From Planctomycetales bacterium (GTDB taxonomy: Bacteria > 4484-113 > JAFGCY01): a DNA stretch of 32,000 nucleotides. Both the position numbers and the translations under genes were made by a program. Position 1 is the first letter of the stretch. Each line of letters starts with the position of its first letter. The stretch is taken from assembly GCA_022646745.1 (NCBI GenBank), contig CP060262.1:2190001-2222000 (forward strand). Reading direction: 5' to 3'. Positions 6,775 through 7,951 of the stretch are shown here, one piece after another. The notes under the pieces were generated by a model. That model worked only from the letters and a program-made list of their open reading frames with translations, had not been told where the DNA came from and did no database searches.

Positions 6775-6824
6775 GGAGGCCCAGCGCAAGCCGGGCTGGG
6801 AGGCCGAGCGCCAGTCCGGCAATT

Positions 6825-6889
6825 GAGGCCAGACAGCAAGTCTGACAACAGTCTGGATAGTATCAATAGTGCGAATAGTGGAAGAAGTA
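6825..6889 (+). repeat. gene-3' module, copy downstream of pyk
   Basis: GAGGCCAGACAGCAAGTCTGACAACAGTCTGGATAGTATCAATAGTGCGAATAGTGGAAGAAGT is the reverse complement of 1364-1426. Confidence 0.8.
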
Positions 6890-7020
6890 GGGGAAGAGGG
6901 GAAGGCGACCGTGCCTTGCCCAGGATGGCGATGGCCATCCGATTGAGAAGTGGTTAGTTCCTAGTAGCGGTGGCACTCTTGCCGTCGAACTGGTGAACCG
7001 TGGCGGCGCGGCCCCGCCGC

Positions 7021-7165
7021 GAGCAGTGAGCAATGAAGAATGAGCAATGAGCCTGACAAACATCTTCTTCCTCTGTGGATCTCTGTGTTTGGCAATCCTC
7101 TTACATCCATATTGCCAATATGGTAGCGGGGCGGCCCTGCCGCGACTGGGAGTGGATGCAGCGAA
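7021..7165 (+). repeat. R1 partial copy C (3' two-thirds)
   Basis: Carries the GAGCAxT heptamer tract, GACAAACATCTTCTTCC, one CTCTGTGG unit fewer than the full copies, TTGGCAATCC, the palindrome ATATTGcCAATAT at 7109-7121, and a GC hairpin followed by GGAGTGGATGCAGCGAAG. A further truncated heptamer-tract copy follows at 7166-7204. Confidence 0.8.
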
Positions 7166-7232
7166 GCAATGAGTAATGAAGAATGAGCAATGAGCCTGAC
7201 AAACGATAGCTAGCTCAGCGCCTCTCTTCAAT

Positions 7233-7467
7233 CTCTGCGCCTCAGCGCCAATAAAACCATGCTGGCGAGCACGAAGATTGTCGCGCCACTGCGCGCCTCG
7301 CATGCGCTCGGGTTTCAACTTGGTCATGATGGGGCGGTTTTACTGGCGCAGAGGCGCAGAAGGGATCCTGAGGCGCAGAGAATCTTAATTCTGGCAACAT
7401 TACCTCTCTCGCGAATCGCGTTGCGTACGAATCTTCCCCTCGCGTGCTGGCGCATCCGGGATGCGCC
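7233..7467 (+). repeat. repeat unit R2, copy B
   Basis: Aligns with 1029-1290. It runs directly into R1 copy B. Confidence 0.75.
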
Positions 7468-7681
7468 GGTACATTATTCGTTTGATTCATCGACAAGCTC
7501 AAGTGCCGGTGCGGCCATGCCGTGAGCAATGAGCAATGAAGAATGAGCAATGAGACTGACAAACATCTTCTTCCTCTGTGGGACTCTGTGGATCTCTGTG
7601 TTTGACAATCCTTTTCGTCCATATTGCCAATATAGTAGCGGCGCGGACATGCCGCGAATGGGTATGGATGCTGCGAGGTTC
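7436..7681 (+). repeat. ~245-bp repeat unit R1, copy B
   Basis: Aligns with 727-974. Hairpin at 7449-7467, heptamer tract at 7524-7558, palindrome ATATTGcCAATAT at 7621-7633. Confidence 0.85.
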
Positions 7682-7707
7682 TCTTGGCTGACGGGATTGG
7701 CACCACC

Positions 7708-7787
7708 GGAACGGGAAGTAGGGAGGCGGTAATACCGCCTCCCGGGATGGGGTGTTACCCCATCCCTACGTCAATCACCTTGGCAAC
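7708..7787 (+). repeat. twin-hairpin module, copy B (both hairpins perfect)
   Basis: Two abutting perfect 10-bp stems: GGGAGGCGGT-aat-ACCGCCTCCC (7721-7743) and GGGATGGGGT-gtt-ACCCCATCCC (7744-7766). The module ends in CTTGGCAAC. Confidence 0.8.
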
Positions 7788-7814
7788 GAAAAACGGCGGC
7801 CCGGGGGCCGCCGC
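7787..7814 (-). terminator. Rho-independent terminator (minus strand) about 140 nt after the coiled-coil gene stop
   Basis: The minus strand reads CGGCGGCC-cccg-GGCCGCCG followed by TTTTT. This is an 8-bp all-GC stem plus a T-tract. Confidence 0.6.
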
Positions 7815-7951
7815 TACTATCCGAACTACTCAAACTATTCCAGACTTTCCCTGCCCGGATCGCTCCGGGCCACCGATTGGAGGCCAGGCAGTTTGCCTGG
7901 CAATTGCCAAGCTGACAGCTTGGCCTCCAAGCCAGGCTTGCGCCAGACATC

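Follow-up and report, generated by a model that had tools for sequence, protein, structure and literature searches.

What kind of element fills two spaces between convergent genes of a bacterium with repeated, hairpin-rich DNA? The spaces lie in the window analyzed here, a stretch of 32,000 nucleotides (contig CP060262.1, positions 2,190,001 to 2,222,000), and are named array A (442–1452) and array B (6775–7951); all coordinates are positions in this window unless a contig is named. Array A is bordered by the stop codons of a 225-aa open reading frame (ORF) on the + strand and of a DUF2207 gene on the − strand (1453–3477), and array B by those of the pyruvate kinase gene (5350–6774, +) and of a 573-aa gene (7952–9673, −). 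Both have a G+C content of 55–57%, as compared with 63% for the window, and both are built from repeated modules, called R1, R2 and X, together with a twin hairpin and with 3′ modules that follow the stop codons. With a rough probability of 0.55, we read them as lineage-specific mosaic clusters resembling the repetitive extragenic palindromes (REPs) and bacterial interspersed mosaic elements (BIMEs) of other bacteria, because the anatomy of their hairpins matches that described for GTAG-tagged REPs. In the arrays, short palindromic hairpins rich in G+C would then be interspersed with further hairpins and with 7–10-nt tandem repeats, downstream of convergent genes.

The window is 100% identical to contig JAGRNS010000032 (metagenome-assembled genome GCA_020440665.1) and to contigs from activated-sludge metagenomes, and the species-representative genome nearest to it is labelled 'UBP7 HKST-UBA01'. 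The host is an uncultured wastewater bacterium of the candidate phylum UBP7. The relatives used for comparison are a close strain (L025/L029, with L009 as its fragment), a sister species (L015) and two more distant genomes (L014 and L010).

A tagged hairpin family with compensated stems

Most of the small hairpins form one family when they are read on both strands. Nineteen of these REP-like hairpins, from three genomes, align without gaps: the foot GT[AG][GC]CGG is present in 19/19 copies and columns 1, 2, 5, 6, 7, and 9 are invariant (GT..CGG.G). The stem above the foot varies under compensation. Indeed, 73% of the cells are paired across the 19 copies, the column pair 10:20 is intact in every copy (CG in 12, GC in 4, and UA in 3), and both sides have changed in 21 cells, a number that none of 500 shuffles reaches (6.4 ± 2.0). 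The stems of 8–10 bp and loops of 2–4 nt (at 438, 621, 647, 736, 928, 1262, 7444, 7718, 7744, 7792, and other positions) have the dimensions of REPs, which are palindromes of 20–40 nt with a 6–13-bp stem and a short loop, and the three pair types at 10:20 correspond to sub-families with alternative complementary stem residues. The members on the + strand are the two hairpins of each R1, and those on the − strand are the hairpin that ends each X and the terminator at 7817; in the proposed scheme this first family, with the foot GT[AG][GC]CGG[C/T/G]G and a variable, compensated stem, would supply all three. The twin hairpin consists of two hairpins of a second type arranged head to head (GTAG-GGAGGCGGT... 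and GTAG-GGATGGGGT..., consensus GTAG-GGAKGSGGT).

The hairpins alternate in orientation along both arrays, at 438+, 764−, 795+, 928+, and 1290− in array A and at 6964+, 7000+, 7123+, 7472−, 7503+, 7635+, and 7817− in array B. Alternating orientation and reiteration together with other conserved motifs are the traits by which BIMEs and REP clusters are recognized; in the arrays the internal period is ~505–525 nt. The tagged hairpins are also concentrated in the arrays, which hold 15 of 39 matches in 7% of the window. GTAG REPs have been described with 6–13-bp stems, short loops and a degenerate tag, in sub-families with alternative complementary residues (PMC3733652). They form head-to-head, tail-to-tail and head-to-tail dimers, their clusters are reiterated together with flanking DNA, and they favour convergent and unidirectional intergenic spaces (PMC3733652), the former being the location of arrays A and B. 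Their families GTAG-1 to GTAG-24 (Di Nocera et al. 2013) extend to the PVC superphylum, including Planctomycetes and Verrucomicrobia, and in one species GTAG REPs are confined to large blocks at few loci; GTAG-23 of Thermomicrobium roseum is block-clustered (PMC3733652).

Several observations weigh against this assignment. In a strict hairpin census made independently of the tag, the tagged proportion is 5/14 in the arrays and 3/22 outside, a modest enrichment. In REPs the tag is an unpaired tetranucleotide at one end, GTAG or a degenerate form of it; here C is the last base of six of the 19 hairpin tags (GTAC, GTGC), a variant that is not listed in PMC3733652, and the twin hairpin has the final G of GTAG paired. 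REPs are also defined by a high copy number, with tens to hundreds of copies dispersed through the genome, and are associated with a transposase gene that they flank. The modules occur only in arrays A and B and in one loosely related third region within the ~60 kb read of this species, the exact R1 pattern has a single match in the species-representative genome, and no gene for a Y1_Tnp transposase (REP-associated tyrosine transposase, RAYT) is present among the genes of the window and its flanks. Finally, 28 nt comprising the heptamer tract and CCTGACAA are identical between the window and the sister species, a sequence constraint that lies outside the REP model.

Arrays A and B as phase-shifted stretches of one unit

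The number of 11-mers common to arrays A and B is 177, whereas 200 shuffles give 0.3 on average and never more than 4. The two arrays match each other with blastn E-values down to 1e-80, and blastn self-comparison detected no copy of any module elsewhere in the 32-kb window. A first-pass annotation of this DNA had listed a set of modules in both arrays and proposed that they are shared non-collinearly. A sensitive blastn self-comparison and a repeat search recovered all of them, at most a few bases away from the listed positions, and the dot plot that the annotation had proposed as a check displays several direct A/B diagonals (offsets 6182–6205, 6348, 6707–6708, and 7097, the last corresponding to the twin hairpin) together with internal periods of 133–143, 339–360, and 482–513. 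The pattern is therefore not that of a single collinear duplication. The 'permuted order' that had been read from these modules is, however, mostly a phase effect: the two long A/B diagonals differ by the internal tandem period of ~505–525 nt, so that A and B are phase-shifted stretches of one periodic unit, X-R1-R2. Each array holds more than one period of this composite unit and carries the twin hairpin on the opposite side, the module order being (R1 tail)-H0-twin-X-R1-R2-X in array A and R1′-heptamers-R2-X-R1-twin in array B.

Two further elements of the annotated order need correction. The 'start of R1' said to follow R2 in both arrays is a separate module of ~90 nt, X (684–775, 1210–1302, and 7386–7472). 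The terminator placed at the end of array B is present at 7792–7815, but its strand is the minus strand and the gene it serves is the 573-aa one. In contrast, the nested partial copy in array B was correctly seen: it spans 7000–7204 because array B contains a 143-nt sub-repeat (hairpin, heptamers and adjoining sequence). The inverted 3′ module at the left end of array B is equally real, with inverted matches of 80% (6799–6888 vs 1451–1364) and 77% (6775–6825 vs 7952–7901) in the self-comparison, and it appears inverted because the 3′ modules keep the sense of the adjoining gene.

Our model of the arrays is as follows. A composite unit of ~505–525 nt (X + R1 + R2) would have multiplied in tandem and given rise to a copy at a second locus, and unequal recombination or slippage between the repeated motifs would add or remove units and leave phase-shifted, partly nested copies, as the comparison between strains suggests. 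Hairpins at the 3′ ends of genes may act as terminators, as barriers to 3′-exonucleases or as stops to convergent read-through, and a conserved core (7123–7472) is probably transcribed on the + strand.

Variation among strains and related species

Within the same population, four independent assemblies (the window and L001, L003, and L004, which come from three different samples or assemblies) have identical B arrays of 1177 nt. Between relatives the module number varies, as the first-pass annotation had suggested examining; array B measures 1177 nt in the window, 1414 nt in L029 and 743 nt in L015, with only 140 nt devoid of modules in L014, and array A measures 1011 nt in the window and 805 nt in L025/L029, and is absent in L015 and L010. 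The coding DNA of the close strain L025/L029 is 93–96% identical to that of the window. In its array B (L029) the order is unchanged and six unit-sized insertions are present, of +9, +19, +20, +10, +162, and +18 nt. Those of +9, +10, and +18 nt are one 9-mer, one 10-mer and two 9-mers, those of +19 and +20 nt are a purine repeat and a GGGAGTAGATGC block, and the 162-nt insertion consists of the R1 tail, the H0 hairpin and the first R1 hairpin. Its array A lacks window positions 776–927, which carry the first hairpin and the heptamers of R1, as well as the 3′ module 1364–1451. The twin hairpin and the terminator are 100% identical in the two strains. With the order kept and the differences confined to unit-sized insertions and deletions, recombination or slippage at the level of units, as first proposed, is supported.

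The sister species L015, whose pyruvate kinase is 92% identical to that of the window at the amino-acid level, has a simpler array B, in which six tandem GCAA-loop hairpins after the stop codon are followed by one core unit (hairpin, GGGAGTGGATGC, heptamers, CTGACAA, R2, X) and the terminator; it lacks a full R1 and the twin hairpin, and array A is missing from this species. The six hairpins (L015 12319–12461) are 24–25 nt long (GGAGGCCCGGAGCAATCCGGG), and the window has only two of them (6775–6825). In L014 and L010 (pyruvate kinase 82% and 80% identical) the spacers are 140 and 305 nt long and without modules. The annotation had supposed a larger ancestral tandem that was differentially truncated; given the single core unit at B and the missing A in L015, and the absence of modules from L014 and L010, it is most parsimonious that the arrays grew in this lineage. 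The R2 paralogues of A and B are 83% identical to each other and each is 82–84% identical to the copy of L015, a comparable divergence which implies that the second locus is old or was seeded from elsewhere. If the REP/BIME-like reading is right, the relatives form a clean natural series of array birth and growth, from no unit to one unit, multi-unit arrays and a second locus, which is useful for studying how such clusters originate.

We also considered a faster evolution of the arrays from a comparison with UBA01, where the non-coding DNA is ~93% identical where aligned and the coding DNA shows 1 change in 168 nt; these are too few sites, and a faster non-coding rate is not claimed. Short-read contigs end inside array B, at window positions 7910 (L002), 7550 (L005), and 7250 (L009). 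The arrays thus break short-read assemblies of this organism, and they could serve as strain markers.

Modules of array A

Array A opens on the + strand with a copy of the R1 tail (438–508), which begins within the stop codon of the upstream 225-aa ORF and consists of a REP-like hairpin (GTAG followed by CGGCGCGCGC-ATC-GCGCGAC), then GGCAGTGGATGC, and a tail ending in CTTGGCAA. It is followed by the H0 hairpin (509–592), with arms of CACGAAG-type octamers, which is also found inside array B of the close strain, and by copy A of the twin hairpin (593–690), made of two hairpins that face opposite ways and carry GTAG tags at 621+ and 672−; two positions of the first hairpin are unpaired. Module X copy A1 (684–775, +) starts with TGGCAACAT and ends in a 13-bp hairpin (736–764) that is followed by a U-rich segment on the + strand; on the − strand this hairpin is a GTAC-tagged REP-like unit. 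R1 copy A (776–998, +) contains, in order, a REP-like hairpin at 795, GAGCAAT heptamers (816–847), CCTGACAAAC, CTGTGGAACT 10-mers, TTGACAATCC...TTGCCAAAATA, a second REP-like hairpin at 928, GGGAGTGGATGC and a tail that again ends in CTTGGCAA. R2 copy A (1003–1203, +) is a long hairpin with the arms CTCTGCGCCTCTGCGCC and GGCGCAGAGGCGCAGAG, and module X copy A2 (1210–1302, +) carries a hairpin (1262–1290) that is GTAG-tagged on the − strand. Pyrimidine-rich, G-poor short tandem repeats (TTCTCA, ACTGACA) occupy 1303–1363. The array closes with the 3′ module of the DUF2207 gene (1364–1451, −), which in the sense of the gene comprises a GCAA-loop hairpin, a CCAGAC...GTCTGG hairpin and GCGAATAGT 9-mers.

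Modules of array B and the 3′ modules

The module after the pyruvate kinase stop codon (6775–6905, +) carries two hairpins of the GGAGGCC...GCAA type, one more hairpin and a purine-rich 9-mer tract; 1364–1451 and 7901–7952 are its counterparts in inverted orientation. A spacer (6906–6999, +) with a hairpin at 6923–6940 and a REP-like hairpin at 6964–6988 leads to the partial copy of R1 (7000–7164, +), which has REP-like hairpins at 7000 and 7123 and heptamers at 7021–7052 and is 83% identical to 7503–7676 (this and the following identities are from the self-comparison). The next phase of the 143-nt sub-repeat is a second heptamer tract with CCTGACAAAC (7165–7213, +). The sister species keeps the junction of this second tract with the GGATGCAGCGA before it; the tract at 7156–7204 is 90% identical to 809–856. 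R2 copy B (7214–7385, +) forms a long hairpin, in which the 25-nt arms reach 92% complementarity and the apical part is shorter than in copy A. Module X copy B (7386–7472, +) ends in a hairpin (7444–7472), which is followed by AUUAUUCGUUUGAUU, and the full R1 copy B (7473–7702, +) carries REP-like hairpins at 7503 and 7635, heptamers at 7523–7554 and 10-mers at 7574–7600. The twin hairpin copy B (7703–7790; GTAG tags at 7718+ and 7769−) is the copy that is unchanged in the close strain, and 7690–7787 is 86% identical to 593–690 of copy A.

The intrinsic terminator of the 573-aa gene (7792–7815, −) reads GTAG followed by CGGCGGCCC-CC-GGGCCGCCG and then TTTTT. Read from 7815 to 7792 on the minus strand, downstream of that gene, it has the make-up of an intrinsic terminator, ten pairs followed by TTTTTCGTT; it belongs itself to the REP-like hairpin family and is conserved in L015 and L029. 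The 3′ untranslated region (UTR) module of the same gene (7816–7951, −) contains a GCAA-loop hairpin, further hairpins and purine-rich 9-mers, and its part 7896–7952 is 77% identical to 1396–1451. The 3′ modules of the pyruvate kinase, 573-aa and DUF2207 genes always stand directly after the stop codon in the sense of the gene, and each combines one or more GCAA-loop hairpins, a purine-rich 9-mer tract and a GTAG-footed hairpin, which in the case of the 573-aa gene is the canonical terminator. Their antisense strand is C-rich and G-poor, a composition that would suit the loading of Rho on transcripts entering from the opposite gene.

Searches for other identities

A search of the whole window against Rfam 15 gave no match at the gathering thresholds and, at E-values up to 10, only noise-level microRNA and small nucleolar RNA hits; a search for tRNA and tmRNA found none. 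The arrays were also considered as coding DNA. An 88-aa ORF (7259–7525) starts inside R2, and it has 18 aa in copy A and no ATG in L015; moreover, the copies differ by insertions or deletions of 1, 10, and 17 nt. As these lengths are not multiples of 3 and the only ORF of R2 is not conserved, the region is non-coding. TTGGCAA and CTGACAA were rejected as sigma-70 −35 or sigma-54 −24 boxes, no copy having a −10 or −12 element at the right spacing, and so was a site for integration host factor in the 30-nt spacer between tag-to-tag hairpins, where the match is partial only and is not conserved in copy B.

A scan of genome contigs with the R1 pattern returned the same species and one chance match only, the pattern being too strict for L015 (CTGACAAGC), and scans of viral sequences gave one chance coding match and nothing else. 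The scan of metagenome contigs with the R2 arm gave two chance coding matches and one unrelated hairpin that contains the R2 octamer. This intergenic hairpin of 155 nt (L017 5197–5351, also in L019) comes from an unrelated metagenomic organism of lower G+C content and has the arms GGCGCAGAGGCGCAGAG and CTCTGCGCCTCTGCGCC, that is, in reversed 5′–3′ order. A second hairpin of the same contig (L017 7024–7109) is similar to the heptamer tract in its arms, made of ATGAGTGATGAAGTATGAAGG. Hairpins whose arms are tandem repeats may be a wider phenomenon.

Alternative explanations

Conservation of the core invites the explanation that the arrays hold, in tandem, the genes for a structured non-coding RNA (ncRNA) specific to the lineage, with the core as a + strand RNA of ~350 nt and the other copies as its paralogues, which we consider possible and clearly less probable than a REP/BIME-like nature; that the core 7123–7472 (paralogue 928–1302) is itself a new structured ncRNA of the UBP7 lineage is slightly more doubtful still. 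Such an RNA would be composed of the REP-like tagged hairpin, GGGAGUGGAUGC, four to five single-stranded AAUGAGC heptamers ending in CCUGACAA, the long R2 hairpin of 170–200 nt and X with its terminator. Its heptamer tract would offer a sequence-specific platform for protein or target RNAs (a protein sponge or a multi-site regulator), and the arrays would be a rapidly evolving multi-copy locus for the core RNA. The core is 77% identical to its counterpart in L015, as compared with 65% at the fourfold-degenerate sites of the flanking genes, and the 28-nt identity noted above falls within it. For R2 + X the consensus structure is kept in 5 copies with 8 compensatory pairs; with 3 sequences there are 9, against 3.5 ± 1.4 in shuffles and 1–3 in slid controls, these statistics being weak because they come from only 3–5 related sequences. 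The + strand folds better (consensus −124 vs −111 kcal/mol; single-sequence z-scores −3.2 vs −2.7), several invariant G-U pairs exist on it only, and X ends (736–764, 7444–7472) in a hairpin with a U-rich tail that is terminator-like on this strand. A structured RNA role for the core unit is possible, given that it has changed less than fourfold sites and has its better fold on the + strand; these features would suit transcription from the pyruvate kinase side, either of a long 3′ UTR with stabilizing or terminating hairpins or of a separate RNA. On the other hand, no sigma-70-like promoter recurs upstream of the units, although the promoter rules of this phylum may differ, and no Rfam family matches the arrays. 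The heptamer-bearing part of R1 is missing from array A of the close strain, the unit is absent in relatives with 80–82% pyruvate kinase identity, and conservation of the hairpins is equally expected for REPs acting at the DNA level. If true, the RNA reading would be the more interesting of the two: structured RNAs would gain a new member in which a heptamer motif is repeated.

The repeats themselves might be functionless by-products of mutation, slippage producing the tandem repeats and template switching the inverted copies, which would pile up between convergent genes, where selection is weakest. This would account for the abundance of 6–14-nt tandem repeats in the arrays, for the fact that every insertion or deletion between strains is a whole repeat unit or a block bounded by repeated motifs, for hairpin arms that are tandem octamers themselves (R2, H0), and for the absence of the arrays in close relatives; the opposite arm order of the R2 octamer in an unrelated organism also suggests that such hairpins arise easily de novo. 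We nevertheless regard it as unlikely, since the stems show compensatory change and not decay, the core exceeds fourfold sites in conservation, the twin hairpin and terminator are unchanged between strains whose coding DNA has diverged by several percent, and the orientation of the 3′ modules always follows that of the adjoining gene. Less probable again are nested insertions of miniature inverted-repeat transposable elements (MITEs), with R2, H0, and the twin hairpin inserted into one another. R2 and H0 are long hairpins with inverted arms of 25–30 nt, as MITEs would be, the presence of H0 at a given site differs between strains, and TTGGCAA/TTGCCAA recurs where modules meet; the window contains 22 copies of it, as compared with an expectation of 2.6, and 11 lie in or at the edge of the arrays. 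However, no target-site duplications flank H0, R2 or the twin hairpin, no copies were found elsewhere in the DNA examined, which covered ~60 kb from this species and 55 kb from relatives, and no transposase gene lies nearby; moreover, the insertion or deletion that includes H0 extends to adjacent parts of R1 and ends in repeated motifs, as expected for recombination.

Genomic surroundings

The 225-aa ORF by array A and the 573-aa gene by array B match no Pfam or PHROG family and therefore give no hint of a mobile element. The DUF2207 gene is one of two tandem paralogues on the − strand (1453–3477 and 3474–5219) with a 4-nt overlap, both having a C-terminal Gly/Ser-rich tail encoded by GCC-rich repeats. 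Beyond array B, on the − strand of 7952–10227, an ECF-type (extracytoplasmic function) sigma factor gene precedes the 573-aa gene, whose product is repetitive and rich in Leu, Glu, and Gln; the two may be a sigma/anti-sigma pair, and they are absent from L010. A very long ORF of 2544 aa is found at 20185–27819 (−).

The third region mentioned above lies just upstream of the window (L001 3790–4320), an intergenic stretch of ~530 nt forming an imperfect giant inverted repeat. Its left arm is made of purine-rich heptamers (GGTCAGT)n and GGAGTTTGGAGTGGGG, the right arm being the complement; the GGAGTTTGGAGTGGGG motif occurs again at window 10255–10270, upstream of the ECF sigma gene, and L001 4221–4304 is 76% identical to window 1286–1366. 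About 1.3–1.5 kb upstream of the window start, a 52-aa cysteine-rich ORF (L001 3191–3349, −; ...CVDNGDGSCTLH...CGCATVSITLHCGESCCSGSDCC) adjoins a gene of the ArsR/SmtB-type HTH_20 family (L001 3416–3754, −). The two look like a metallothionein-repressor pair and are kept in L010, L015, and L029.

Comparison with known systems

The modular intergenic organization of the arrays can be compared with that of several repeat systems. Pneumococcal BOX elements, of which more than 100 copies are dispersed, keep their modules in a fixed order, boxA-boxB(n)-boxC. Like the arrays, they are modular, vary in internal module number by locus and strain and can form extended secondary structures; unlike them, arrays A and B occupy two loci and are built on a periodic composite unit, and no sequence similarity to BOX elements is known. 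Tandem small RNA genes, such as the multi-copy Rsm- and LhrC-type ones, share with the arrays repeated units in which a tract of single-stranded motifs lies between hairpins, a terminator-like 3′ hairpin and copies both in tandem and at a second locus, whereas the units here are incomplete, nested and dispensable between strains and have no detected promoters. The twin hairpin resembles REPINs, which are REP doublets that form hairpins (Bertels and Rainey 2011, cited in PMC3733652), in being an inverted doublet of related tagged palindromes. The REPs of a REPIN pair mutually across a spacer, whereas the twin hairpins fold separately and abut directly.

The arrays are ordinary in kind and most resemble the REP/BIME clusters of other bacteria. 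With GTAG REPs and the REP-BIME system of Escherichia coli they have in common short G+C-rich stem-loops with a GTAG-like 5′ tag and alternative complementary stem residues, both orientations, head-to-head pairs in the form of the twin hairpin, units reiterated with flanking DNA, tag-to-tag pairs ~30 nt apart (764−/795+ and 7472−/7503+), a position downstream of convergent genes and G-U pairing on one strand. They differ in that, within the ~60 kb read of this species, copies were found only in the arrays and no RAYT gene was seen, that the fourth base of the tag is often C, that the clusters are unusually large (1.0–1.4 kb) and hold long hairpins (R2, H0) and extensive 7–10-nt tandem repeats, and that one 350-nt unit is conserved across species. 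If the REP/BIME-like assignment is right, mosaic clusters of this type extend to the uncultured candidate phylum UBP7.

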